Part shown: one piece after another, positions 1,513 through 48,692 of the stretch
Numbering within the stretch: the stretch's first letter is position 1
How the letters are laid out: each line of letters begins with the position of its first letter
Source: an uncultured Candidatus Melainabacteria bacterium
GTDB lineage: Bacteria > Cyanobacteriota > Vampirovibrionia > Gastranaerophilales > Gastranaerophilaceae
Assembly: GCA_934757155.1 (NCBI GenBank)
Contig: CAKVLI010000005.1
Location: 22,366 to 86,365, forward strand
Length of the DNA: 64,000 nucleotides
Reading direction: 5' to 3'
Translations under genes and position numbers: made by a program
Notes under the pieces: generated by a model
Database searches by the model: none
What the model was told of the DNA's origin: nothing
The model's input: the letters and a program-made list of their open reading frames with translations, nothing else

Positions 1513-1542
1513 GCGAGCGTGTGCTTTGCACAATAGCGAGCG
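1513..1542. repeat. Mini-hairpin TGTGC-TTT-GCACA flanked by direct GCGAGCG heptamers
   Basis: GCGAGCG 1513-1519 and 1536-1542. Stem 1520-1524/1528-1532. An inverted relative lies at 9501-9530. Confidence 0.7.
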
Positions 1543-6938: not shown

Positions 6939-9332
6939 GTGCCAGTTTTGCTTAAAAATTTTTGCGGGTTAATTGAAAGGAATAAGAATGTTTTGATGCT
7001 CCTCTCAGCAGGGGTCTATATACTTGCTCTGTATGCGGTGCTATCTTCGCATTTGCTTGTGCTGTCGCTAATATTTACGATAGTTCTAATTTTGCTTATA
7101 TCATTCAACCTTCTTCCGACAAAGTATGTGCTTGTTTGGCTAACAATCTTTTATCTCGGAGTGATTAATACATCCGCAAGACTCAAAAATGTGGACGAGC
7201 TTCTTAATCTCGCCCCTCTTAATTCCGAAATTACGGGAAAAGTTCTTACGATTCCGCAAGGGAAGTTGGATGGGAAACAGAAGTTTTTCTTTGATGTTGA
7301 AAAGATTAAATTCGGCTCAGTTGAGAAACATTTTGAGAATGAAAAAGTATTGGTAACACTGAATTCTGATGATGCGGATTTGAAGCTTTTTGATACAATA
7401 TCGCTTTCAGGCAGATTGTCTGCGCCTTTCAAGGCCGGTAATCCCTCGCAATTTGATTACGGAAACTATTTGAGAAATCACCGTGCGTATTCTGTTTTCT
7501 ACGCAAAAGATTATGTAAAACTGAATTCCACACTGTCTTTGAAAGAAAAAACAATGCAGAAAATCAATAATTATAGAGAAAATGTTATCAATATCCATTC
7601 GAAATACTTAAAATCCCCTAACCTTGAGATTTTGGGCGGAATTGTTTTTGGTGATGACGCTGTTTCTCCGCCACAGAATATTAAACAATCTTTTATAAAC
7701 TCAGGCTTGCTCCATATTTTAGCTGCTTCCGGCATGAACGTTGCGTTTATTTACACGTTTTTCTTTGCGATTATGTCCTTGTTCAGAATTAATTTCAAAA
7801 CGAAAGTTTCGCTTGGGATTGTAACTGTGGTTATTTATTCTTTGATGACAGGACTCGGTGCATCGGTTATCAGAGCTGCGTGTATGTTAATCTTTGTGCT
7901 TTTGGGAAAATTGATAGACAGAGACGCTCACAGTATATCTTTGCTATCTTTTGTTGCGCTGTTGATGCTGATTTACAATCCGATGTATATAAATGATGTC
8001 GGATTTCAGCTTTCGTTTATTGTAACTTTCGGCATTCTTGTTATGGCACCTGCGGTTGCAAGGTTTAAGAACAAATTTTTGGATTTTCTTGCAGGAACGG
8101 TCGCAATTCCGATTATTGCGCAGTTGTGGGTTATTCCGATTCAGATTTTTTATTTCAATAATATAAGTTTATATTCTGTGTTTGCAAATATTATGAGTGT
8201 GCCGATACTTATGGTGTTGAGTTTTGGCGGGTTTGTGAGTTCTCTATTGTGCGCAATAAAACCGTTGGCAAGTTTTATTTGTCAGGTTTTCGATTTTATA
8301 CTGAATCCTCTGCTGACACTACTTGTTAACATTTCGGATTTTTGGGGACAGTTACCGCATTCTACTATGCAAACGACTCATCCCAGCGTATTTCAAATTT
8401 TTGTTTATTACGGAATTTTGCTTTGTATTGCAGGACTTTTGTACAAAGAATTGCGTGAGAAATATTTGAAGAAACTTTTGATTTCTTTTGCTGTTTTGTT
8501 CGTGACTTGGATGATTACCTTGATTCCTGTCAAAAATTCTAACCTTGAGATTACGGCGTTTGATGTTGGAAACGCTGATTGTTTCTTGATTAAAACCCCT
8601 CAAAACGAATACTTAATGATTGATACAGCCAAAAACGGTTACAAAGGCGGAAAATCGCAGGCAGAATTGATTGTTTTGAAGTATTTCAAAGATAACGGGA
8701 TTAAGAATATTGATACGATTATTGTGACTCACTTTGATAACGACCACTGCGGCGGAGCGGTTGATTTGATGAATGGGGTTAAGGTCAAAAACTTGTATGT
8801 AAACGATTTGAACCACGATTCTTATGCCGCAAAAGACATATATAAAACTGCAAAAGAGACCGGTGTGAATCTGATTTTGGCTGTAAACTCACAGACTGTT
8901 TACGATAAATCGGGTGTGAGTTTAGTCAATTATCTTCCTAAAACCGGTGGGAGTGATAATGACAACTCAATTATTACGACTCTAGGATACAAAGATTTTT
9001 CAATGTTGTTCACCGGTGATGCCGGTGAAGAGGCTTTAAACTCTGTAATTGGGAGCTTGGGGCAAAATTATACGGTTTTGAAGGTCCCGCACCACGGCGC
9101 GCATGGTGTTTTGAATAAAAAGATTATGAGAGTTTTAAACCCTAAATACTCTTTGATTTCTGTCGGGGAGAACAAATTCGGGCATCCGGATGTCTATACG
9201 CTTTCTTTGTTAGACAATTCCACTGTATTGAGAACTGATATTCATAATGCGGTAAAGTTTGTTGTTGACAAGCATGGGCTGAAAGTTCTGACTTACGATA
9301 TGAAACGACGAAAGTTCGTAATCAAACTTTAA
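6939..9332 (+). CDS. comEC: DNA internalisation competence protein ComEC/Rec2 with C-terminal metallo-beta-lactamase domain
   Basis: Polytopic competence domain. HFDNDHCGG and VPHHG beta-lactamase-fold motifs. GTG start at 6939, with an alternative ATG at 6996. Confidence 0.9.
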   Translation: MPVLLKNFCGLIERNKNVLMLLSAGVYILALYAVLSSHLLVLSLIFTIVLILLISFNLLPTKYVLVWLTIFYLGVINTSARLKNVDELLNLAPLNSEITGKVLTIPQGKLDGKQKFFFDVEKIKFGSVEKHFENEKVLVTLNSDDADLKLFDTISLSGRLSAPFKAGNPSQFDYGNYLRNHRAYSVFYAKDYVKLNSTLSLKEKTMQKINNYRENVINIHSKYLKSPNLEILGGIVFGDDAVSPPQNIKQSFINSGLLHILAASGMNVAFIYTFFFAIMSLFRINFKTKVSLGIVTVVIYSLMTGLGASVIRAACMLIFVLLGKLIDRDAHSISLLSFVALLMLIYNPMYINDVGFQLSFIVTFGILVMAPAVARFKNKFLDFLAGTVAIPIIAQLWVIPIQIFYFNNISLYSVFANIMSVPILMVLSFGGFVSSLLCAIKPLASFICQVFDFILNPLLTLLVNISDFWGQLPHSTMQTTHPSVFQIFVYYGILLCIAGLLYKELREKYLKKLLISFAVLFVTWMITLIPVKNSNLEITAFDVGNADCFLIKTPQNEYLMIDTAKNGYKGGKSQAELIVLKYFKDNGIKNIDTIIVTHFDNDHCGGAVDLMNGVKVKNLYVNDLNHDSYAAKDIYKTAKETGVNLILAVNSQTVYDKSGVSLVNYLPKTGGSDNDNSIITTLGYKDFSMLFTGDAGEEALNSVIGSLGQNYTVLKVPHHGAHGVLNKKIMRVLNPKYSLISVGENKFGHPDVYTLSLLDNSTVLRTDIHNAVKFVVDKHGLKVLTYDMKRRKFVIKL

Positions 9333-9376
9333 TTCTACATTTTATTAAGTTTTTATTTAAATTTTAGTAGTAAATT

Positions 9377-9440
9377 CCTATTTCTTTTTCTTTTACCTTG
9401 CAAACAAAAGAAAAAGAAATAGGAAGAAAGAAAAAGAAAA
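9377..9440. repeat. Three-tract Y/R element: perfect 18-bp hairpin plus mirror-repeat purine tract (triplex/H-DNA geometry), copy 1
   Basis: CCTATTTCTTTTTCTTTT (9377-9394), 11-nt loop, AAAAGAAAAAGAAATAGG (9406-9423). 9427-9440 AAAGAAAAAGAAAA is the mirror of 9406-9419. Confidence 0.85.
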
Positions 9441-9530
9441 CCCAGCAATTGTTTACAACAGCTTCGCTGAATTTTAAGTTGTGCTACGCACAATCTCTTA
9501 CGCTCGCTATTGTGCTTTGCACACGCTCGC
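9441..9530. repeat. Conserved module following the Y/R element (GCAATTGTTYACAAC ... GTTGTGCTACGCACAATCT), plus TGTGC-TTT-GCACA hairpin
   Basis: Collinear blocks shared with 36532-36608, including an identical 19-mer at 9478-9496 and 36578-36596. Confidence 0.8.
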
Positions 9531-9562: not shown

Positions 9563-9692
9563 ATATTACCCCTACTCCGTGGGACTTCCAGCCAGTAGTT
9601 AAAACCAACTACCCCTTATATTTACCTCCGCTCCTGCTCCGCAGGACTTCCAGTCAGTAGTTAAGACCAACTAGCCAAGATACATTTACCCC
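9563..9692 (-). repeat. GGGGTAAATRTAT-family tandem repeats (two ~63-bp units plus a partial unit)
   Basis: GGACTTCCAGCCAGTAGTTAAAACCAACT (9581-9609) and GGACTTCCAGTCAGTAGTTAAGACCAACT (9644-9672) match 26/29. Units end in the reverse complement of GGGGTAAATGTAT. Confidence 0.8.
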
Positions 9693-9694
9693 AA

Positions 9695-9725
9695 GAAAAA
9701 GTCCTCAAGAAATGAGGACTAAAAG
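9695..9725 (-). terminator. Rho-independent terminator (minus strand)
   Basis: 8-bp stem AGTCCTCA/TGAGGACT with a 5-nt loop, followed on the minus strand by TTTTTC. Confidence 0.6.
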
Positions 9726-9915: not shown

Positions 9916-10212
9916 CTAAGCGATAAAATTGTTCCCAAATCTGTTAGCACCGTAGAAGAAGGATTCTTTCATAACTTGTTGAAGGCTTCTTTTTCTGATG
10001 AGTTTGTTTCCGACTTTGGTGTTTTGGATATCTTCAACTGATTTTTGGTACTGACCGCAAACAAGAGAAGATATGTATTTAGATACGCAGGTTTCTTCTT
10101 GGGCTTCGTCTTCAGAGACTGTTTTTACTTCAGAATCATATTGATCGAAGAAGTTAGCGATAGAATTAATTTCGTCGTTTTCGATATTGATATTAGTAGT
10201 GGTGAATAACAT
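9916..10212 (-). CDS. Hypothetical small acidic protein (98 aa from the ATG at 10212)
   Basis: AGGAG SD 8 nt upstream of the ATG at 10212. The longer ORF-track start at 10275 lacks an SD. Confidence 0.45.
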   Translation of the reverse strand: MLFTTTNINIENDEINSIANFFDQYDSEVKTVSEDEAQEETCVSKYISSLVCGQYQKSVEDIQNTKVGNKLIRKRSLQQVMKESFFYGANRFGNNFIA

Positions 10213-10381
10213 CTCTAAAGCTCCTGTGTATCTCTTATATATATATAAAGTATAGAAAGAATAAAAAATTGCCAAAATTGCCCCAAAATGTTAAGAAATG
10301 TAAAATTGAGTTTAGTTTTTTGCCGAAATCGCAATAAATCTTAAATAGTTTTTGGTATAATATTCTGGTGCTGAGGAGATT

Positions 10382-28574: not shown

Positions 28575-28580
28575 GAAGAA

Positions 28581-28740
28581 AACTAAATACAAGGAAACTA
28601 CGGTGAAAATCCGTGACTGTGCCGCAACCGTTATAGCCGGAATACTTATTAAGTAGATGTATCGTTTTATGAGTAACTACAATGAAGGACACTGCGAGTC
28701 ACAGTGATTCTAAAGCTTTCCTGTTGCGGCAAAATTTCAA
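28581..28740 (+). promoter_or_regulatory. Candidate cobalamin riboswitch leader
   Basis: AAGGAAACTACGGTGAAAATCCGTGACTGTGCCGCAACCGTTATAGCCGGAATAC resembles the cobalamin-riboswitch core (GGGAA..GGTGAAAATCC..C.G..CCCGC.AC.GT.A then an AGYCMGGA.AC B12-box-like run). GCCGCAAC (28621-28628) is complementary to GTTGCGGC (28723-28730) just upstream of the SD. Confidence 0.45.
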
Positions 28741-28760
28741 ATAAGGAAGGTTTTTTAGTA

Positions 28761-29411
28761 TTGGCAAACTCAGTTCCAAATGTGAATAATCTCAATACGG
28801 GTACTTGCCCGCACGGACTCCCTCCGGGGGCGTGTCCGGTGTGTTCGACCGGTGCCGGTTCTATGAGGCAGTCAGACCGCAATCGTAATATTGGCGAGAT
28901 GACGTATCATGAGTGTGCAATGATTGGCAATATGATGAAGGCGCGGGAATTGGCTCAGAAAAATCACGAGGCAAATCTGGAGCATAGAGCGGAGAACCTT
29001 GAAGCATTTCAAAAGAATTTGGAAAAGCTTTCTGCGAATATGCTGGAGTTCGCAAAACAGATTTCCAACTTTATTCCACTAAAGCCAATAGCATTTGCGA
29101 TAAAAAATATTGCGGTGCCTGTAGTAAACTTTGTGAGAAATATTCCGAAGCTTGTTTCAAATTTCAAATTTGAGATTATGGACAAATTGAGCGCAATCTT
29201 TGGTGAAGCAAAGGCTTTTGTGGACAAGAAGGTCTCAGAAATGGTTTCTGTTATCAAAAACTTTATTTTAAAAGTATTCAAGAAAAACAACTCGGATGAT
29301 GAAGACACCAAGATTGACGATGATAAGAAAATTTTCAATTTAAAAACAATTTTACAAAAAATAATAAGAAAGAAAAAGAAAAAACATGAACATGACGCCG
29401 AAAATCTATAA
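28761..29411 (+). CDS. Hypothetical protein with N-terminal CPHGLPPGACPVC motif, coiled-coil and Lys-rich tail
   Basis: Same frame as ORF 28704..29411. AAGGAAGG SD 10 nt upstream of the TTG at 28761. No family recognised. Confidence 0.5.
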   Translation: MANSVPNVNNLNTGTCPHGLPPGACPVCSTGAGSMRQSDRNRNIGEMTYHECAMIGNMMKARELAQKNHEANLEHRAENLEAFQKNLEKLSANMLEFAKQISNFIPLKPIAFAIKNIAVPVVNFVRNIPKLVSNFKFEIMDKLSAIFGEAKAFVDKKVSEMVSVIKNFILKVFKKNNSDDEDTKIDDDKKIFNLKTILQKIIRKKKKKHEHDAENL

Positions 29412-33052: not shown

Positions 33053-33134
33053 TTTCTCTCTCCTTATTGCTTGAGTAAATTATATAATTAATTAGTTTAC
33101 TAGTAAAGTACTTAACTGCACTTGTGTTTAACCC

Positions 33135-33215
33135 TGCGATCCTTCGGTCGCTTCGCTCCCTCAGGATGACAAAATGGTTACGTCATTCTGAGGCTTTAGC
33201 CGAAAAATCGCAAGG
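33135..33215. repeat. Structured ~80-bp repeat flanking the GIY-YIG gene, copy 1
   Basis: The outer arms TGCGATCCTTCGG / CCGAAAAATCGCA can pair. Inner 12-bp stem CCTCAGGATGAC / GTCATTCTGAGG. About 85% identical to 33548-33627. Confidence 0.85.
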
Positions 33216-33231
33216 TCCGTGTATTTTTCCA

Positions 33232-33525
33232 CTATATGATAGACTCATATAAGTCTTGCCAGCTAGGGTTAAACTTACTAATTATATCTTTTTTAAATTG
33301 TCGGGTTTTGCCTTTTAAATACTTTTCTCTTTCTATTGCAGTTACAATTGAGTCGGTAGATTCAAAATATACTAATTTTGTTAAATTATATTGTTTTGAA
33401 AAGCCTTCGACCACTTTATTTTTATGTTCCCATATTCTTTTGGGTAAATCGGAAGTAACTCCTATATAATAAACAGAATTATGTTCATTGGTGATTATAT
33501 AAATATATCCGTTTTTGTACTTCAT
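33232..33525 (-). CDS. Stand-alone GIY-YIG (URI-domain) nuclease-family protein, 97 aa
   Basis: GYIYIITN...VYYIGVTSDLPKRIWEHK, carrying the GIY, YIG, Arg and Glu signature. Confidence 0.85.
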   Translation of the reverse strand: MKYKNGYIYIITNEHNSVYYIGVTSDLPKRIWEHKNKVVEGFSKQYNLTKLVYFESTDSIVTAIEREKYLKGKTRQFKKDIISKFNPSWQDLYESII

Positions 33526-33547
33526 AAATTATCCTACTATTTAATCT

Positions 33548-33627
33548 TGCGATCCTTCGGTCGCTCTGCTCCCTCTGGATGACGAAACAACCGCGTCATT
33601 CTGAGGCTTTAGCCGAAGAATCGCAAG
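33548..33627. repeat. Structured ~80-bp repeat flanking the GIY-YIG gene, copy 2 (plus a 12-bp hairpin with 33638-33649)
   Basis: Same orientation as copy 1. AAGAATCGCAAG (33616-33627) pairs perfectly with CTTGCGATTCTT (33638-33649). Confidence 0.85.
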
Positions 33628-33670
33628 GTATTGGTAGCTTGCGATTCTTTTAATAATATTTTATTTCAAG

Positions 33671-36334
33671 CTATTTCAAAGATTCAATCAAATCTTTGAT
33701 AGCATTTTCTTGAACTGTGATTTCTTCAATTCTTGCGTTGGTTTGTTCAACGAGTTCTTTTGGAGCGTTAGCAACAAATTTTTCGTTTTTCATTCTGCCG
33801 ACAAGAGAATTCTTTTCGTTCAAAAGTTTTTCGAGTTTCTTTTCCTGACGTTTGATTTCTGCGTCCAAATCAATCAAATCCGCAAGGGGAACAATGAGTT
33901 TTGAAGCAGAAACAACAGCTGTTGCAGATTTTGGCGGAATTGGTGCGTCTACAGGAGCGTAAGTTATATTATTAACTTTTGCCAATCTGTGAATATATGC
34001 TTCAATTTCCTCGAAAATAGCTTTTTCGTTTTCGTCAGCTCTAATTTCAACATCAACTGTTGCTGAAGTTGAAATATTGAAGCTTTGTCTTACGTTTCTC
34101 AAAGAAGTGATTGTTTCAAATACAAGTTTCATTTCAGCAGCTTCTTTTGGGAAAGAAAGGCTTTCTTCATAAACCGGATATTTTGCGATAATCAACGCAG
34201 AAGGAGCATCATCGCCCAAACCGAATGAACTCAAGCTTTGCCATACTTGTTCAGTAATATGCGGCATAATCGGGTGCAGCATTCTGAGTGACATATCCAA
34301 AACGTATCTCAAAACTCTTTGAGTATTCATTTTCAATTCAGGGTCGTTCAACTGAATTTTTGCGATTTCAACGTACCAGTCGCAGTATTCGCTTCTGAAG
34401 AAATCGTACAATGTGTGCGCAATTTCACCGATTCTGTACTCTTCCATATGTTGGTTAACCGTTTTTGCAGTTTCGTTCAATTGGTTAAGTATCCACTTAT
34501 CAACAAGCGTGAGCTTATCTCTGTCAATCGGATTGTTGTCAACACCTTCCAAATTCATTAATACGAAACGTGATGCGTTCCAGAGTTTGTTTGCAAAGTT
34601 TCTTCCGTATTCAAATCTTTCGTCAGAAATCTTGATATCCTGACCGCCGTATGTACAGAGAGAAGTCATTGTGAAACGAAGTGCGTCACAACCGTATTTT
34701 TCAATGATTTTAACAGGGTCAATTGTGTTGCCTTTTGATTTTGACATCTTCTGACCTTTTTCATCACGAATCAAACCGTGAATATAAACAGTCGAGAATG
34801 GCGCTTTTCCTGTGAATTCTAAGCCCATTGTAATCATTCTTGCAACCCAGAAGAAAATGATATCAAAACCGGTTACGAGAACTGATGTCGGGTAGAATTT
34901 TTTGAAATCATCCGTTTCAGAGTTCGGGAATCCCATTGTTGAGAACGGCCACAAACCTGAAGAGAACCAAGTATCAAGGCAATCGCTGTCTTGTACGTAA
35001 TTTTCAGGATCCGGATTTTCTTTCGCTACAACCATTTCACCTGTAACCTTGTGGTAATAAGCCGGAATTTGGTGTCCCCACCAGATTTGACGAGAAATAC
35101 ACCAGTCGCGGATGTTTTCCATCCAGCCAAGGTAGTTCTTTTCCCAACGTTCAGGGATGAATTTTATTCTTCCGTCTTTAACTGCAGCAATCGCTTCTTT
35201 TGCAAGCGGAGCCATTTTTACGAACCATTGTTCAGAAAGAAGCGGTTCGATTGTTGTGTTACATCTTTGACATTTACCAACATTGTGTTCGTGGTCTTTT
35301 ACTCTTAGCAAGAAATTGTTGTAACTCAACATATCAACGATTTTTTTACGAGCTTCATAACGGTCGAGTCCTTGGTATTCAGGCGGAACTTCTGTACAAG
35401 CTTTCATTTTTCCTTCGCCATCAATAACCCAAATTGGAGTAAAGTTGTGACGTTTGCCGACTTCGAAGTCGTTAGGATCGTGAGCAGGAGTGATTTTAAC
35501 CGCACCTGTTCCGAAAGATTTATCAACATATTCGTCCGCAATGATAGGAATTTGACGTCCTGAAAGCGGAATCATGACAGTTTTACCGACTAGTTCTGAA
35601 TACTTTTTATCGCTAGGGTGAACAGCAATTGCAACGTCACCGAAAATGGTTTCCGGTCTTGTTGTTGCAACGATAATAGCACCAGGTTCGCCGACGAGCG
35701 GGTAAGAAATTTCCCACAAATGTCCTTGTTCTGTTTCGTATTCTGTTTCAACGTCAGAAATTGCTGATTGACAGCGAGGACACCAGTTTACGATATAAGC
35801 ACCTTTGTAAATAAGTCCTTTGTTGTATAGTTTTACGAAAACTTCTTTTACAGCATCTGAACAGCCTTTGTCGAAAGTAAATCTTTCTCTTGAGCGGTCA
35901 AAAGATGCGCCTAAACGTTTGCACTGGTCAAGGATGTGGCTCTTGTGTTCATTTGTCCATTCCCAAGTTTTTTCAACAAACTTTTCTCTGCCCAAATCGT
36001 GTCTTGTCAAACCTTCTTTCGCGAGTTGTTTTTCAACGACGTTTTGAGTAGCCAAACCTGCGTGGTCAGTACCCGGAATCCACAATGCTTCGTATCCGCT
36101 CATTCTGTGGTAACGGATAAGAATATCTTGCAATGTTTCGTCCAAAGCGTGTCCCATGTGTAAAACACCGGTTACGTTTGGCGGCGGAATTACAATCGTG
36201 TAAGGCGGTTTGTCAGAATGCGCATCTGCTCTGAAATAGTTGCCGTCTTCCCAAAATTTGTACATTTTCTCTTCAGTCGACGTAGGGTCATAAACTGTAG
36301 GTAAATCTTCCGCTTTTATTTTTGTCTCTGTCAT
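33671..36334 (-). CDS. valS: Valine--tRNA ligase
   Basis: PPPNVTGVLHMGHAL (HIGH) and KMSKSKGN (KMSKS) motifs. C-terminal coiled coil. 887 aa. Confidence 0.95.
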   Translation of the reverse strand: MTETKIKAEDLPTVYDPTSTEEKMYKFWEDGNYFRADAHSDKPPYTIVIPPPNVTGVLHMGHALDETLQDILIRYHRMSGYEALWIPGTDHAGLATQNVVEKQLAKEGLTRHDLGREKFVEKTWEWTNEHKSHILDQCKRLGASFDRSRERFTFDKGCSDAVKEVFVKLYNKGLIYKGAYIVNWCPRCQSAISDVETEYETEQGHLWEISYPLVGEPGAIIVATTRPETIFGDVAIAVHPSDKKYSELVGKTVMIPLSGRQIPIIADEYVDKSFGTGAVKITPAHDPNDFEVGKRHNFTPIWVIDGEGKMKACTEVPPEYQGLDRYEARKKIVDMLSYNNFLLRVKDHEHNVGKCQRCNTTIEPLLSEQWFVKMAPLAKEAIAAVKDGRIKFIPERWEKNYLGWMENIRDWCISRQIWWGHQIPAYYHKVTGEMVVAKENPDPENYVQDSDCLDTWFSSGLWPFSTMGFPNSETDDFKKFYPTSVLVTGFDIIFFWVARMITMGLEFTGKAPFSTVYIHGLIRDEKGQKMSKSKGNTIDPVKIIEKYGCDALRFTMTSLCTYGGQDIKISDERFEYGRNFANKLWNASRFVLMNLEGVDNNPIDRDKLTLVDKWILNQLNETAKTVNQHMEEYRIGEIAHTLYDFFRSEYCDWYVEIAKIQLNDPELKMNTQRVLRYVLDMSLRMLHPIMPHITEQVWQSLSSFGLGDDAPSALIIAKYPVYEESLSFPKEAAEMKLVFETITSLRNVRQSFNISTSATVDVEIRADENEKAIFEEIEAYIHRLAKVNNITYAPVDAPIPPKSATAVVSASKLIVPLADLIDLDAEIKRQEKKLEKLLNEKNSLVGRMKNEKFVANAPKELVEQTNARIEEITVQENAIKDLIESLK

Positions 36335-36423
36335 AATATATTCCCTCGCTCGTGTATTTTAGATAATTAAATCTTAGCATAAACACGAATGTTTTTGTTC
36401 TTTTTCTTTCTTTTTGCTTAGCA

Positions 36424-36447
36424 GTAGGTCGGCATTACTATGCCGAC
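36424..36447. repeat. GTAG + 8-bp stem + TACT-loop hairpin, copy 1
   Basis: GTAG GTCGGCAT TACT ATGCCGAC. The same architecture with a different stem occurs at 47057-47080. Confidence 0.75.
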
Positions 36448-36468: not shown

Positions 36469-36531
36469 GTCATTTTCTTTCTTCTTAGTTGCGGGGCAAG
36501 AAGAAAGAAAATGACGAAAAGAAAGAAGAAG
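36469..36531. repeat. Three-tract Y/R element (triplex/H-DNA geometry), copy 2
   Basis: GTCATTTTCTTTCTTCTT (36469-36486), 11-nt loop, AAGAAGAAAGAAAATGAC (36498-36515). 36517-36530 AAAAGAAAGAAGAA is the mirror of 36498-36511. Confidence 0.85.
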
Positions 36532-36608
36532 CACGCAATTGTTCACAACGTCTTCGCTTCGCTCAGCCGAAAATAGGGTTGTGCTACGCACAATCTATTA
36601 GCTCGTTA
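36532..36608. repeat. Conserved module following the Y/R element, copy 2
   Basis: GCAATTGTTCACAAC, CTTCGCT and GTTGTGCTACGCACAATCT blocks, collinear with 9441-9509. Confidence 0.8.
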
Positions 36609-36674
36609 GGGTAAATATATTTGATTAACCACCCCCTTAATCCCCCTCCCCAAGGGGGCATTGAATGCTTGAAT

Positions 36675-36800
36675 CCGTCCATAACGGAGTGAGTAATCAA
36701 TGTTAATGAGCCAATAACAAAGCAGGTGTTGTTTGAACGTAGTGAGTTCACCTGCTTAGGGCGAATTTTACAATTGATTAACGAACGCAGTTCCGGACGG
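36675..36800. repeat. Long imperfect inverted repeat enclosing a 9-bp hairpin
   Basis: CCGTCC...TAATCAAT (36675-36701) against ATTGATTA...GGACGG (36773-36800). Inner stem AAGCAGGTG (36720-36728) / CACCTGCTT (36749-36757). Confidence 0.6.
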
Positions 36801-36813
36801 AGAGTTTCTTTGC

Positions 36814-36845
36814 GCCGCGTTTCTTTGCGGTCAAAGAAATGCGGC
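36814..36845. repeat. 13-bp hairpin with adjacent direct repeat GTTTCTTTGCG
   Basis: GCCGCGTTTCTTT / AAAGAAATGCGGC with one G-T pair. GTTTCTTTGCG occurs at 36803-36813 and 36819-36829. Confidence 0.6.
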
Positions 36846-36878
36846 TAAAAATATGAAACTAAAATGTCAATATTTATG

Positions 36879-36912: not shown

Positions 36913-37398
36913 ATGAAAAAATTCCTGACCTTATTTTTAGCAATTTTGTTTCCCCTTTTTGTAAACGCTGCTGTCTTGGAAGCAGGTGTTTCGATTGAGG
37001 ATGTTCCGGATGCTATGTTCGGGAGCTGGCGGGTCAAGGCGGTTTTGGATACATCAAACAGTTATGGCACATTTAAACCTCAGAGCCTTGATTTTTGGAA
37101 TATGTCCCGAGTAGGGAATGAAATCACTTTAGACAACCCTTTTACAGGCGCAAAATCGACAATCTCTCTTAAGAATGTCGAAGGAAATGTTGTTGTTTTT
37201 TCAAAAAAGGCAAAATATGATGACAATAAAGTCTTAACCGACACTGTAACAATAAGGCTGAGTGATACGGAATTCAGCGGAATAAACAGCCTGACGCTGG
37301 AATCGTTTTCACTTGTGGATAACCATTTGATTAAGACAGAAACCGCAACCTATAAAATTACCGGAGAAAAAATTGCGGGAGAAAGTGTTATTAAATAA
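36913..37398 (+). CDS. Secreted hypothetical protein (161 aa)
   Basis: Signal peptide MKKFLTLFLAILFPLFVNAAV. No recognised domain. Confidence 0.6.
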   Translation: MKKFLTLFLAILFPLFVNAAVLEAGVSIEDVPDAMFGSWRVKAVLDTSNSYGTFKPQSLDFWNMSRVGNEITLDNPFTGAKSTISLKNVEGNVVVFSKKAKYDDNKVLTDTVTIRLSDTEFSGINSLTLESFSLVDNHLIKTETATYKITGEKIAGESVIK

Positions 37399-38239
37399 TA
37401 CTTTTCTTAAGTCTTTCGCTTCTGTTTTCGCTCAACAAGTTTTTGAGCTTCATAATAGCTTGTGCGTGAAGTTGTGATACACGGGATTCTGAAACGTTAA
37501 TCGCGTCGCCGATTTCTTTAAGGGTCATATTTTCGTGGTAATAAAGAACCATTATGGTTCTTTCTCTCTCAGGTAAACGTTTCAAAGCATCCTCCAATTC
37601 CTTTTTGACATCTTTTTCTTCAAGTTGTTCGTGTGGTGCGAGATTGTGAGAATCTTCGATTGTATCAATTATTTCAATGTCGCCGTCTGATGCGCCTTTT
37701 TTGTCGTAGAGTGACGTAATTGTTGTGTCGTCAGCCAATAACTGTTCGACTTTTTCCTTCTCAATTCCCAAGTAATTTGCGATTTCGGTGTTTGTGGCAG
37801 CCCTTCCGAATTGTTTTTTTAGCTCATCCTGAGCCTCTTTCACATCCCTGATTTTTCTTCTGACACTTCTCGGCAGAAAATCTTGTGAACGAACTTTGTC
37901 AATGATATTTCCTCGAATACGTACAAGCGCGTAGGTTTCAAACCTTGCGCCCATTTTTGGGGTATATTTTTCTACAGCGTCAATAAGCCCTTCCACGCCG
38001 TAGCTTGAAATATCTTCAAACGAAAAAGTCGGCGGAAGCGCAACTTTCACACGCCCTACAACGTATCTTGTAAGATAGATATATTGTAGGATTAATTTAT
38101 CCCTGAGAGTTTTGTTGTCGTGGTCAGCAAAATATTGAGTCCACAGCTCTGTCAACTCTTCATTAGATGCACGTTTTATTTTGTTGTACGAAGAAAAATC
38201 TAAATCCTGTTCCATCCCGTTCGCCCACAAACATGTCAA
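37391..38239 (-). CDS. fliA: RNA polymerase sigma factor, FliA/WhiG (sigma-28) family
   Basis: GVEGLIDAVEKYTP..GARFETYALVRIRGNIID..DFLPRSVRRK (regions 2-3) and LPERERTIMVLYYHENMTLKEIGDAINVSESRVSQLHAQAIMKL (region 4). An alternative start at 38215 is possible. Confidence 0.8.
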   Translation of the reverse strand: MTCLWANGMEQDLDFSSYNKIKRASNEELTELWTQYFADHDNKTLRDKLILQYIYLTRYVVGRVKVALPPTFSFEDISSYGVEGLIDAVEKYTPKMGARFETYALVRIRGNIIDKVRSQDFLPRSVRRKIRDVKEAQDELKKQFGRAATNTEIANYLGIEKEKVEQLLADDTTITSLYDKKGASDGDIEIIDTIEDSHNLAPHEQLEEKDVKKELEDALKRLPERERTIMVLYYHENMTLKEIGDAINVSESRVSQLHAQAIMKLKNLLSENRSERLKKSII

Positions 38240-38380: not shown

Positions 38381-40936
38381 ATGTCAGGTGAAAGTATCAG
38401 ATTTAACGGTAATGGAAAGAAAATTGATTTTAATGAAGGTACAAGTTACCGTAAAGCTAAGAAACAATTTAAAGAACTAAAATCTATTTTTGACAAAATA
38501 GATGATGTTGGTGAGAAAAAGGGAAAAGTAGACGGAAGAGAATTAGAACTCTTGAAAATGCTAAGAGGTTTATTACCAACGAAGGCTTTTGGCGAAGAAG
38601 CCATGTTAGAATTGGTAGACAAATTTGAAAACTCTGGATGTTCCTCTATTGAAGAATTTTTGGAACAGGCGACTGCGGAAAAATCTAAGCAAGAGACAAA
38701 AGAGACTGTACCGGAATCTGAATTAACGCCAGTTTCAGAAGAATCACAAGAAACAAAAGAACCTCCAAAAGCTGAGACTCCGGAATCTCCGGCAGCACCG
38801 GTTGAACCTGAAAAACCTGCTGAGCCGGAAAAGCCAACCGAGCCGGAAAAGCCAACCGAGCCGGAAAAACCTGCTGAACCTGCGAAGGCTGAAGAGACTA
38901 AAACTTCTAATTCCAAACTTTCACCTGAAAGACAAGCAAGAAGAAAAGCATTTAATGATGCTATCCAGAACTTGAAAAAGAAAATGGAAAAAGATAAAGA
39001 CAAATTAGTTTCTGAATTTGATAAAGAGTACACTGTCAAAGCGGGAGATTCTTTCTACAGAATTGCAGAACGTTCGTTAATGGAAGAAAACGGCGGCAAA
39101 AAGCCTACTCCGGCAGAAGTTAACAAACGTATTGCCGAGATTGCACTTGTCAACGGCATTGATGATATTTGGATGACAATTCGTCCCGGAGATAAGCTCA
39201 AACTCAAAGGTATTGGTGAAAAAACAGAAAACAACACGACTGTAGAAGGTGATAAGCCTCCGGTTGATGGCGGAGAAACAAAACCAGGTGATAAACCTCC
39301 GGTAGAAGAAGGTGATAAACCACCGGTTGATGAAAAGCCACCGGTAGACGGTAAACCTCCTGTAGAGGGCAAACCTCCGGTTGATGAAAAACCACCTGTT
39401 GATGGTAAACCGCCTGTCGATAAAAAACCTCCGGTGAAAGGTGAAGACAAGAACTTTGAAGAAGGTTTTGCTCACGGTAAAGAGATCGCAGTGATGTTGC
39501 GATTAGGCTTTGGTGATATAGCTGCAATGTTAAGGTCTACGGAAGGCAAATATAAAGGCTATATTACAAAAGACAACATTGTTGGTGTAATAGCCGGTTA
39601 TAAGGAAGTTCTTCCTAACGGTGGTATTTTAGAAAACATCGCGATGTTATCACGTATTGAATATGGCAAACGCCCGGGGCAAGCTCTATGTAACCGAATT
39701 CCAAAAGCATTGATGAGAAAAGCTGCTGAAATGAATTTGCAAGATACTGATGCATACAAGGCTCTGAAAGACTACTTTGGTGCAGATGACAAATTTAATT
39801 TCACGAAGAACGATGATGCAAAAGCTGTATACACTCAAACTGAAGCAAAACTGGTTGATAAGATGATACAAGATTTGTACGAAGTCATTTTAAAGAGCGG
39901 TGAATCCAAATCTCCGGTAGAAACAAAACCACCTGTTGATGAAAAACCGCCTGTTGACGGCAAGCCACCGGTAGAGGCTAAACCTCCGGTTGAGGACAAA
40001 CCTCCGGTTGAACAAGGTGGTGAAGTCGAGACACCGACTCCGCCGGAATCTTCTGCCCAAGAAAAAATTAATGCAATAGGTAAAGAAAACATTGACGCTC
40101 TGAAAGAGTTTGTAAAAACTGAGCCTGAAATGGTTAAGGCAAGATTAGCAACTCTTGTGGGTGAAAACAAGGCTGACGGTGAGTTTATCTCAAAAGTTTT
40201 GGGTATGCCAAAAGAAGTGTTGCCATATGATACTTTGACATCACTTAATGCAAGCGAAAACAAGTATAATACCAAGCTTAAACAACAGCTGTTTGAAAAG
40301 TGCTTGAATGACAGAATTGAACGAAAAGATTGGAAAACTGCCTTGAACAAAGCTGTAGAAATGGGCTGGGCAACTAAATTGTCATCAAGTTACTATCAAG
40401 TTGGTGAAAAAGTCTATGACGTTAACTTGTGGCGACGTGATAATGGTGCGGACGGTAAGCCTAGAACAGATGATGACATAATGCAGCTTCATCAATTTAG
40501 TAGTAAAGGTTTTGAACATGGTCAAAAAATTAAGTACAGTATTGGCAGCGGAGATATCGGCGTGATTGCAAACACGTTGAGATCAGATGCTACTAATAAA
40601 GACAATATAGAAGGATTTATAGCCGGGTTCAATTCAAGCTCTCCTATAGGTATGATGCAAAGCTTTGCATCACTTGCCGGAAGTAAGCCGGGGGCATACA
40701 TGGCGAAATCTCTATGCAACACGGTTCCAAAAGCCTTAATGCAAAAAGCAGCTGCAATGGGGCTAAAAAACACAAAAGCATTTAAAGATCTGCAAGAATT
40801 TTTTGGTGCGGATGACAGTTTGAAATTCACTAAGAACAACGATGCCAAAACCGGATATACTCAAGAAGAAGCGAAACATTTGGATAAATTGATTAATAAT
40901 TTGCATTTCCAAATCTTGCGACATTCGGGTGTATAA
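38381..40936 (+). CDS. 851-aa LysM-domain protein with Pro-rich repeat linkers and a duplicated ~140-aa C-terminal domain; no signal peptide
   Basis: LysM-like YTVKAGDSFYRIAE...IRPGDKLKL. (PEKPxE)n and (KPPVD/E)n repeats. The two domains share CN(R/T)(I/V)PKALM(R/Q)KAA and FFGADD..(F)TKN(D/N)DAK. Confidence 0.75.
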   Translation: MSGESIRFNGNGKKIDFNEGTSYRKAKKQFKELKSIFDKIDDVGEKKGKVDGRELELLKMLRGLLPTKAFGEEAMLELVDKFENSGCSSIEEFLEQATAEKSKQETKETVPESELTPVSEESQETKEPPKAETPESPAAPVEPEKPAEPEKPTEPEKPTEPEKPAEPAKAEETKTSNSKLSPERQARRKAFNDAIQNLKKKMEKDKDKLVSEFDKEYTVKAGDSFYRIAERSLMEENGGKKPTPAEVNKRIAEIALVNGIDDIWMTIRPGDKLKLKGIGEKTENNTTVEGDKPPVDGGETKPGDKPPVEEGDKPPVDEKPPVDGKPPVEGKPPVDEKPPVDGKPPVDKKPPVKGEDKNFEEGFAHGKEIAVMLRLGFGDIAAMLRSTEGKYKGYITKDNIVGVIAGYKEVLPNGGILENIAMLSRIEYGKRPGQALCNRIPKALMRKAAEMNLQDTDAYKALKDYFGADDKFNFTKNDDAKAVYTQTEAKLVDKMIQDLYEVILKSGESKSPVETKPPVDEKPPVDGKPPVEAKPPVEDKPPVEQGGEVETPTPPESSAQEKINAIGKENIDALKEFVKTEPEMVKARLATLVGENKADGEFISKVLGMPKEVLPYDTLTSLNASENKYNTKLKQQLFEKCLNDRIERKDWKTALNKAVEMGWATKLSSSYYQVGEKVYDVNLWRRDNGADGKPRTDDDIMQLHQFSSKGFEHGQKIKYSIGSGDIGVIANTLRSDATNKDNIEGFIAGFNSSSPIGMMQSFASLAGSKPGAYMAKSLCNTVPKALMQKAAAMGLKNTKAFKDLQEFFGADDSLKFTKNNDAKTGYTQEEAKHLDKLINNLHFQILRHSGV
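38804..38880 (+). repeat. In-frame 18-bp tandem repeats (PEKP(A/T)E)
   Basis: GAGCCGGAAAAGCCAACC occurs twice exactly (38822-38857), flanked by diverged units. Confidence 0.85.
39249..39440 (+). repeat. In-frame degenerate 15/30-bp repeats encoding (D/E/G)KPPV(D/E)
   Basis: Reiterated AAACCTCCGGTTGAT-type units. They generate the spurious antisense ORFs in the ORF track. Confidence 0.85.
39909..40015 (+). repeat. Second block of KPPV(D/E) coding repeats
   Basis: Same unit as 39249-39440. It precedes the second copy of the duplicated domain. Confidence 0.85.
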
Positions 40937-48384: not shown

Positions 48385-48503
48385 AAGAGACTGTTAACAA
48401 ATCTTAATAATTTTGAACAAAAAAGGCAATTATTTATCTCAGCAATACTTTATATATATATGAGAAATAAAAACAGAATATAAAGTATAAAAAGGAGTAA
48501 ATC

Positions 48504-48692
48504 ATGGCAAGAGTATTGATTTCAATGCCTGAAAGTTTTTTGGGCAAAATTGACCAAGTAGCTGACTTGGAAAGCAGATCACGTTCTGAGTTAATCAGAG
48601 AAGCTTTGCGCAGCTATATTACAAGAAGTCAGGTAAGACAAAGCGGGCTTGCAGATAAAAATGCAAGAATCCTAGAGGCGCTACTGGATTAG
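48504..48692 (+). CDS. Ribbon-helix-helix (CopG/MetJ-type) DNA-binding protein, 62 aa
   Basis: MARVLISMPESFLGKID...RSRSELIREALRSYI is a typical RHH N-terminus. AAGGAG SD. Confidence 0.7.
   Translation: MARVLISMPESFLGKIDQVADLESRSRSELIREALRSYITRSQVRQSGLADKNARILEALLD

Follow-up and report, generated by a model that had tools for sequence, protein, structure and literature searches.

Intrastrand triplex motifs were defined by Hoyne and Maher (Hoyne et al. 2000, as cited by Holder et al.) and surveyed by Holder et al. 2015, NAR 43:10126 (PMC4666352). The three blocks of a Class II motif run 5'-pyrimidine, purine, reverse-Hoogsteen purine-3', and those of its complement, Class IV, run 5'-Hoogsteen pyrimidine, pyrimidine, purine-3' (PMC4666352). 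In the same survey, stems longer than 11 were never present in scrambled genomes, TMECO took up a triplex fold in vitro, TM loci showed more rearrangement between strains, and neither the PIT elements nor BoxC/TMECO had promoter or terminator activity (PMC4666352). Here we analyse a three-tract element that occurs in two copies in a 64,000-nt stretch of DNA (the window) from an uncultured Candidatus Melainabacteria bacterium (contig CAKVLI010000005.1, positions 22,366 to 86,365). Judged by its block order, the head of this element is an intrastrand triplex motif of the known PIT/BoxC/TMECO kind, hence no new class, and it is a further example of the repeats known from E. coli and cyanobacteria. 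Our best explanation of the whole, which we hold with moderate confidence, is that the head of a mosaic repeat would act as an intrastrand triplex motif whose triple pairing is perhaps maintained and which has no role tied to a particular gene.

Copy 2 lies in the 578-bp divergent intergenic region between valS (33671-36334, - strand) and the open reading frame ORF-161, its head being placed 135-197 nt upstream of where valS starts (36334), while copy 1 begins 44 nt after the stop codon of comEC (6939-9332) at 9332; both positions had been given correctly by an earlier reading made from the letters alone (the sequence-only reading). The head of copy 2 (36469-36530) is built as follows.

36469-36472, + strand: 5' half of the clamp, GTCA, which pairs with TGAC at 36512-36515.
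36473-36486, + strand: pyrimidine core Y, TTTTCTTTCTTCTT.
36487-36497, + strand: 11-nt loop AGTTGCGGGGC, which includes TTGC.
36498-36511, + strand: purine core R, AAGAAGAAAGAAAA, which would be the middle strand of the triplex.
36512-36516, + strand: 5-nt spacer TGACG, made of the TGAC clamp and a G, which would be the turn if the third tract folds back.
36517-36530, + strand: third tract R', AAAAGAAAGAAGAA, the exact 14-nt mirror of 36498-36511.

A script check bore out the perfect 18-bp stem between the Y arm GTCATTTTCTTTCTTCTT (36469-36486) and the R arm AAGAAGAAAGAAAATGAC (36498-36515), as well as the 11-nt TTGC loop and the exact 14-nt mirror that the sequence-only reading had described. 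The purine runs of R and R' have lengths of 2,2,3,4 and 4,3,2,2, so that the pair is a true mirror and a poor direct repeat. The three tracts thus stand in precisely the register that base triples would require. On the plus strand R' is antiparallel to R, a register that fits the purine motif, and on the minus strand the Y' tract TTCTTCTTTCTTTT stands in perfect parallel register with the purine arm AAGAAGAAAGAAAA, which would allow T.A-T and C+.G-C triples.

Copy 1 (head at 9375-9440) repeats this architecture with another sequence, and we refer to the two as type A (copy 1) and type B (copy 2). Its perfect stem is 20 bp long (9375-9394 with 9406-9425), its loop again has 11 nt, and its third tract occupies 9427-9440.

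9375-9394, + strand: clamp TTCCTA followed by the pyrimidine core TTTCTTTTTCTTTT.
9395-9405, + strand: 11-nt loop ACCTTGCAAAC.
9406-9426, + strand: purine core AAAAGAAAAAGAAA, clamp TAGGAA, then a G.
9427-9440, + strand: third tract AAAGAAAAAGAAAA, which mirrors 9406-9419 and at the same time complements the Y core.

When the flanking C is included, the mirror of copy 1 reaches 15 nt (9405-9419 with 9427-9441). The 14-nt cores of the two copies differ at five positions, and each of these differences is matched in all three tracts, just as the earlier reading had claimed; the third tract sits exactly 1 nt past the end of the stem in both types. We also compared heads from related contigs and loci, which carry L numbers below. 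The clamp varies yet stays complementary, being GTCA/TGAC in copy 2, CCTA/TAGG in copy 1, CCA/TGG in L003 and GTAC/GTAC in L022, and in L003 it has lost one base pair on both sides relative to copy 1 (CCTA/TAGG to CCA/TGG), a compensated change. The TTGC of the loop is kept in all sequence types, and strain L019 differs from the window by two loop substitutions (loop ATTTGCGAGGC) with all three tracts intact. Most of the mirror-specific information comes from copy 2. The exact three-way match in two sequence types suggests that the triple pairing itself is maintained.

We then asked how often such an arrangement arises by chance. Only four mirror repeats with arms of at least 10 and a spacer of at most 10 are present in the 64-kb window, and two of the four are copies 1 and 2. 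Among 1176 pairs of natural purine tracts (each of at least 14 nt) from this lineage's DNA, a mirror run of at least 14 was found in 0.34%. When the A/G order of the third tract was shuffled and the hairpin kept, a mirror of at least 14 appeared at P = 7e-4 for copy 2 and 9e-3 for copy 1; an A/G-only null of this kind had been named by the sequence-only reading as its refuting test, and the element survived it. A three-block search (Y, loop of 1-12, R, loop of 1-8, mirror R) returned two motifs with a stem of 14 and one with a stem of 7 in the window, and no three-block motif with a stem of at least 8 in 100 Markov shuffles of it, the motif thus being commoner than in scrambled sequence. The same scan, with a perfect stem of at least 8, gave no other motif in ~560 kb of Melainabacteria-type loci. 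These results confirmed that the three-tract element is real and no product of low complexity or chance. The window's only other three-block motif (7 nt) is formed by 36804-36827 together with AAAGAAA (36833-36839); 36804-36827 (GTTTCTTTGCGC|CGCGTTTCTTTG) is itself a 12-nt mirror repeat without spacer and also a direct repeat with a 13-nt period.

With DNA parameters the predicted hairpin has an energy of -17.4 to -17.9 kcal/mol (z about -6.5 to -6.9), and RNA folding gives the same picture. Every RNA and DNA secondary-structure prediction, by programs that treat secondary structure only, left the third tract unpaired. We considered whether the third tract extends a longer hairpin with an upstream T run and rejected it, since 9 of the 14 positions match, which is the chance level for T-rich sequence. 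Promoter and terminator scans gave no signal tied to the element, and the head hairpin is not an intrinsic terminator, being A/U-rich and followed by purines (+ strand) or mixed A/T (- strand) and not called by the scan. At the gathering threshold Rfam gave no match for the element; under permissive settings it returned nothing but miRNA-hairpin models, whose 17-41 bits stay below their thresholds of 52-117. The one Rfam match of the window lies elsewhere, an AdoCbl-II (cobalamin) riboswitch at 28580-28655 (+ strand; 45 bits against a gathering threshold of 36.5) just upstream of ORF 28704-29411.

The sequence-only reading had treated the element as a 63-nt unit, a view that we had to abandon. 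Alignments with L003, L047 and L022 and nhmmer matches revealed that both heads precede a conserved tail of ~90 nt with small hairpins, in the order GCAATTGTTYACAAC, CTTCGCT, GTTGTGCTACGCACAATCT, TTA-GCTCG, and a 19-mer of this tail is exact in both window copies. Copy 1 has a third tail hairpin, ATTGTGCTTTGCACAC-GCTCGC, and a middle of two CCAGYCAGTAGTT... repeats that lead to its right end.

36535-36611, + strand: tail of copy 2, from alignments and nhmmer matches.
36535-36549, + strand: tail hairpin a of copy 2, GCAATTGTTCACAAC.
36552-36563, + strand: CTTCGCT, twice, in the copy 2 tail.
36578-36594, + strand: tail hairpin b of copy 2, GTTGTGCTACGCACAAT.
36601-36611, + strand: GCTCG of the copy 2 tail.
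36615-36636, + strand: possible short right end of copy 2, ATATATTTGATTAACCACCCCC, similar to copy 1 ATACATTTACCCC (by eye, weak).
9445-9530, + strand: tail of copy 1, made up of hairpin a (9445-9459), hairpin b (9478-9494), hairpin c (9509-9524) and GCTCGC(T) motifs.
9588-9611 and 9650-9673, + strand: direct repeats CCAGYCAGTAGTTAARACCAACTA of copy 1.
9680-9692, + strand: conserved right end of copy 1, ATACATTTACCCC, common to L003, L093 and L091.
1513-1542, - strand: solo tail module c, CGCTCGCTATTGTGC-AAA-GCACACGCTCGC (nhmmer E = 0.001).

The middle of the element differs between copy 1, L003, L093 and L091, which have the right end in common, and the tail hairpins are retained with different sequences in L022. 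Judged from these alignments, the element is a mosaic insertion of ~180-320 bp that consists of the head, the ~90-nt tail, a variable middle and a short conserved right end. We also observed that the solo module c at 1513-1542 (- strand), compared with 9500-9530 (+ strand), has its 3-nt loop reverse-complemented (AAA against TTT) and its stem orientation kept, a flip-flop-like relation.

Next, we compared strains. The window matches human-gut metagenome contigs such as ENA ERZ4561837 NODE_502 (Hadza samples), and the species is present in the Hadza, MERR22 and VALL22 samples. An exact scan of the GTDB species genomes with the tail 18-mer GTTGTGCTACGCACAATC returned four matches, of which only L003, a 1.6-kb contig of a metagenome-assembled genome labelled Candidatus Melainabacteria, is genuine. 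L003 carries a near-identical type-A element at another locus, upstream of groES. The insertion of ~330 bp has the hairpin's first base as its start and ...CATTTACCCCCCC as its end, and its flanks CCAATGATT and CCAATAATT form a target-site-like duplication of 7-9 bp with one mismatch, seen at this one site only. The groES site is empty (CCAATCATT) in the close relatives L070, L071 and L073; neither window copy has a recognisable target duplication. At the comEC locus of strains L061 and L062 copy 1 is absent and the flanks have diverged. For the valS locus the following features of the intergenic region are relevant.

36398-36415, + strand: pyrimidine tract TTCTTTTTCTTTCTTTTT, complement of the type-A third tract over 15 nt.
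36428-36447, + strand: terminator-like hairpin GTCGGCAT-TACT-ATGCCGAC, then A4 T11, between valS and the head.
36674-36846, no strand assigned: palindromic module "X", similar to a miniature inverted-repeat transposable element (MITE), 97% identical and inverted in L022.

The 15 nt that 36398-36415 shares with the complement of the copy 1 third tract had already been pointed out in the earlier reading and held on checking, and the tract is probably the relic of an inverted head. In L022 valS is 100% identical, but the whole block of ~465 bp upstream of it has the reverse orientation; the rearrangement has its left breakpoint in the 36398-36415 tract, and the head has diverged (type C), head and tail being only ~75% identical to the window and the neighbouring module 97%. 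We rejected an invertible-promoter switch as the account of this inversion, given that difference in identity (~75% against 97%) and the lack of clean flanking inverted repeats. Module X has inverted ends of ~33 nt (CCGTCC...GTAATCAAT.GTAA) and a central hairpin.

Truncated and joined copies are also present. In L052, L056, L059, L063 and L064 the head is cut after AAAAGAAAAAG and fused to the terminator of a 98-aa gene at a AAGAAAAAG microhomology; L091 retains the Y arm and loop only; L047 is a chimera in which a type-C Y arm is joined to the type-B loop, R and R'; and several contigs stop inside the element. On our preferred explanation, the visible effect of the element is that insertions, deletions, inversions and assembly breaks cluster at the loci that carry it. 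The earlier claim of a dispersed module rather than a gene-specific signal is well supported by the absence at comEC in L061/L062, the inversion at valS in L022 and the insertion upstream of groES in L003, and the element would be without a gene-specific regulatory role.

The family has few sequence types, and independent types could not be raised above three. Neither a family member nor a pyrimidine/purine hairpin was found at ~25 groES-linked loci of other Melainabacteria (L025-L044, L070-L080) or at the syntenic comEC locus (L081-L090) of a species in which the 98-aa protein has 76% identity; the family is therefore narrow. Long pyrimidine/purine hairpins were not found in ~280 kb of other Melainabacteria loci, and no new sequence type emerged from the later loci (709 kb in total), which were searched with the family profile and, in one set, also for pyrimidine/purine hairpins. 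All 14 matches of the tail 18-mer in the JGI metagenomes were chance or unrelated repeats, and a protein-database search with a spurious 66-aa ORF spanning copy 1 gave no matches. The segment 29333-29384 (repeat family D7) was rejected as a further copy, since it is part of a coding ORF and lacks a hairpin. Separately, the JGI contigs L012, L014, L015 and L016 contain an unrelated repeat family with ...GCTGCGC(C/T)(T/C)GTCGGTTGTGCTACGCACAATCAC(T)(T/A)CGTGATTCCCTCTTG..., and in many of the groES-groEL loci L025-L044 a small gene for a four-helix bundle of the 23S_rRNA_IVP / bAvd type, sometimes split in two, lies between groES and groEL.

Set against the PIT and BoxC/TMECO repeats, the element shares the three blocks on one strand, the multiple intergenic copies, the lack of a fixed gene orientation, the unusual rearrangement of its loci among close strains and a stem length unseen in scrambled genomes. 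The Class II/IV block order is found in both window copies and in L003, and the complement of R with Y and the mirror of R with R' hold at 14 of 14 positions in types A and B but fail in L022 (type C) and L047. The definition of ITxF asks for a stem of 6-15 nt, loops of 1-6 nt and at most one mismatch (PMC4666352), and the search of Hoyne et al. for loops of 0-10 nt (PMC4666352). The 14-nt stem is within the range; the second loop measures 5 nt in copy 2 and 7 nt in copy 1, and the first loop is taken up below. The BoxC/TMECO consensus is CCCTCNCCC-N3-6-GGGNGAGGG-N3-GGGNGAGGG, to which the head is unrelated in sequence, so that it is no BoxC member; it is A/T-rich instead of G/C-rich and would form 14 triples against 9. 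Unlike PIT/BoxC repeats, the head has an additional mixed Watson-Crick clamp of 4-6 bp that competes with the turn, it is joined to a hairpin tail at the end of a larger insertion, it has two family members with different cores in which all three blocks changed together, and its host is of the Melainabacteria type.

Other known systems resemble parts of the element. Like H-DNA-forming sequences, the head is a homopurine.homopyrimidine mirror repeat (arms of 14-15 nt, spacers of 5-7 nt); for H-DNA a mirror repeat in duplex suffices, whereas the head adds a complementary pyrimidine arm on the same strand, the hallmark of an intrastrand fold. Like MITEs and REP/BIME repeats, the element is short, non-coding and dispersed, is polymorphic in presence and orientation, is a mosaic of hairpin modules with one target-site-like duplication and breaks assemblies, but its copy number is low in comparison (two in 64 kb, with few sequence types). 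The minus strand, with two U-rich tracts and one A-rich tract in triple register, recalls ENE/MALAT1 and engineered U.A-U helices (PMC7583470, PMC7102945). It differs from them in that the head is a simple double fold-back, whereas the ENE is a U-rich internal loop that clamps a 3' tail, in that it has no known transcript and no conserved orientation to genes, and in its 14 consecutive triples, a number that would be greater than in natural RNA examples known so far. Finally, synthetic polypurine reverse-Hoogsteen hairpins (PPRHs) bring together two mirror polypurine arms, a loop of ~5 nt and a polypyrimidine target. The R-turn-R' of the head follows the same design principle, with the difference that a PPRH is man-made and has its target in trans, whereas the head has all three parts on one natural strand.

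Based on this architecture we propose how the head could work. In single-stranded DNA, such as the lagging-strand template, a transcription bubble or a recombination intermediate, Y and R would zip into a hairpin of 18-20 bp, the 4-6-bp mixed clamp would open to give a turn of 5-7 nt, and the third tract would then occupy the major groove over 14 consecutive triples. These would be antiparallel A.A-T and G.G-C triples on the plus strand and parallel T.A-T and C+.G-C triples on the minus strand, the latter expected to be more stable for the A/T-rich core. Because a single nucleotide (G) separates the stem from the third tract, the clamp must form the turn, and the triplex and the full hairpin would therefore be alternative states. 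The folded end would perhaps matter for the copying or recombination of the element. Judging from TMECO and H-DNA, a likely consequence would be stalled or slipping polymerases or breaks, which would agree with the microhomology deletions, inversions and chimeras observed at the element loci.

The clamp covaries so as to remain paired, which means that the hairpin is certainly maintained; for the triplex, which is plausible, the argument comes from the mirror statistics alone. Several observations weigh against the triplex. Triplexes of the purine motif are weak when A-rich, and protonation is required for C+.G-C triples. The clamp is kept paired yet would have to melt, which suggests that the selected form could be the hairpin instead of the triplex. 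The sequence-only reading had taken the three-way covariation as the signature of base triples; the register is indeed exact and non-random, but perfect three-block heads exist in two sequence types only (A and B). The type-C stem of L022 (GTACTTTTCTTTTTTCTTT / AAAGAAATAAGAAAAGTAC) has one T.T mismatch and its third tract a 1-nt insertion, and the head of L047 has one core mismatch and an unpaired clamp; both may be decaying copies or assembly chimeras. The mirror of copy 1 is low in information, its third tract having only two G, and for this reason it is nearly a direct repeat shifted by one base. The first loop measures 11 nt in types A and B and 8 nt in L022, and 11 nt is beyond the published ranges, a mismatch that reflects a limit of search parameters and is no physical exclusion. 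As an insertion, the element departs from MITEs in having asymmetric ends without terminal inverted repeats, and no gene for a transposase, RAYT, HUH or Y1 enzyme turned up in the window or the loci examined, where five window proteins were scanned and no systematic search was made. For the best-studied relative, DMS (dimethyl sulfate) footprinting of TMECO in vivo detected no stable triplex (PMC4666352).

These points bring up an ordinary palindromic repeat, in which the hairpin, the TTGC loop and the tail matter (for example as a protein or recombinase site or as an RNA stem) and the third tract is incidental, its mirror being a by-product of low-complexity purines, local duplication or slippage. 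In favour of this account are the third tracts of types A and C, which could equally be shifted direct repeats of R, the alternative hairpin that the third tract of copy 1 can form with Y, the covariation of the clamp, which preserves the 18-20-bp hairpin, the broken mirror in type C and L047, and truncated heads that persist without R'. On the other hand, copy 2 is a true mirror, the shuffles gave P = 7e-4 and 9e-3 and the natural-tract null 0.34%, and the third tract stands exactly 1 nt after the stem in both types; moreover, we know of no templated copying process that yields mirror repeats. We consider this account possible but rather unlikely. A more novel reading, that the 14-triple helix is itself what is selected and does the work, either as a single-stranded DNA triplex marking the end of the element for the copying or recombination machinery or as a triple helix in a minus-strand RNA, we judge unlikely. 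The RNA version taken by itself would involve a minus-strand transcript (Y'-turn-Y-loop-R) whose U.A-U / C+.G-C triple helix stabilises or regulates the RNA in a way like ENE/MALAT1 in principle. Consistent with it are the perfect parallel register on the minus strand, the direction that valS has in common with the minus strand of copy 2, the retention in L022 of tail hairpins with different sequences and the finding that pyrimidine-motif triplexes can form in RNA and purine-motif ones cannot (PMC4666352). Both orientations, however, occur upstream of the same valS, copy 1 is situated past the terminator of the 98-aa gene and, on the other strand, after comEC, scans of either strand gave no promoter-like site or U-tract terminator flanking the element, no Rfam family matches, and the absence from close strains makes the element dispensable. 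The natural RNA triple helices known, moreover, have no more than six consecutive triples (PMC7102945), and we regard the RNA version as quite unlikely.

At the level of duplex DNA, negative supercoiling could turn R-spacer-R' into H-DNA and extrude the inverted repeat as a cruciform, a switch that would modulate the divergent valS and ORF-161 promoters. The mirror repeat is a textbook one (arms of 14-15 nt, spacer of 5-7 nt) and copy 2 does lie in a divergent intergenic region of 578 bp, but the surroundings of copy 1 and of the L003 copy are unrelated, strains with an identical valS have the element missing, inverted or replaced, the mapped promoter-like sites are outside the element, and the complementary Y arm on the same strand is left unexplained, all of which makes such a switch highly improbable. 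More closely tied to mobility is the idea that the hairpin and loop are a processing site for a single-strand nuclease or transposase (HUH/Y1, as at REP/RAYT or IS200/IS605 ends), with the purine tracts as guide or spacer. The L003 insertion starting at the first base of the hairpin, the conserved and asymmetric ends without terminal inverted repeats, the TTGC conserved in the 11-nt loop and the tail of REP-like hairpins are in line with it; indeed the right end ...ATACATTTACCCC is no inverted copy of the left end TTCCTATTTC.... Against it count the mirror relation, which it leaves unexplained, the target-site-like duplication of L003, a kind that IS200/IS605-type elements do not make, and the enzyme gene, none having been identified in the window or the loci examined, where the search was not systematic. 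A processing site is thus, in our estimation, quite unlikely, and we retain the intrastrand triplex motif at the head of a mosaic repeat as the preferred explanation.

The 98-aa gene (9916-10212, - strand) adjoins copy 1 and is multi-copy, with an identical protein in different neighbourhoods (also in L052, L063, L064 and L091), one of which is a prophage-like block with terminase, SU10 portal and adaptor. Homologues of its product number over 1000, have a length of ~96 aa and come for the most part from very short contigs. The gene has its own terminator (9700-9720), and its promoter region recurs at 48478-48510 and in L003. A 119-aa version of ORF 9916-10275 has no database record, and the gene as called is the 98-aa version. 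Just downstream of valS, two 90-nt direct repeats (33127-33216 and 33540-33629, 86% identical) flank a 97-aa GIY-YIG gene (33232-33525, - strand), which is homing-endonuclease-like. The motif GTCATTCTGAGGCTTTAGCCGAAGAATCGCAAGG, which is widespread, is part of these repeats, and in L003 a related module comes after the element. A sigma-70-family gene (37391-38239, - strand), called as 274 or 282 aa depending on the strain, adjoins the intergenic region of copy 2. Further along, an 851-aa ORF (38381-40936, + strand) contains arrays of 18-nt tandem repeats (38804-38902 and 39244-40029) with KPPVD/EPEKP-like units and varies from 828 to 851 aa among strains.

For the organism the finding has a practical side, in that the element breaks metagenomic assemblies. 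For intrastrand triplex motifs, the family adds an A/T-rich and unusually long (14-triple) example from an uncultured gut lineage, together with strain-to-strain cases of insertion, deletion, inversion and chimerism at the motif, where BoxC/TMECO, the best-studied member, has been tied to genome instability only statistically. Its two natural variants, changed in all three strands, provide the sort of evidence from which selection on a structure is usually argued. If the single-stranded DNA version of a selected triple helix were true, this would be the first mobile element with a terminus defined by base triples, and if the RNA version were true, its 14 consecutive U.A-U / C+.G-C triples would be longer than any known natural one. 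In either case the family would provide the first natural covariation evidence for selection on a bacterial intrastrand triplex.

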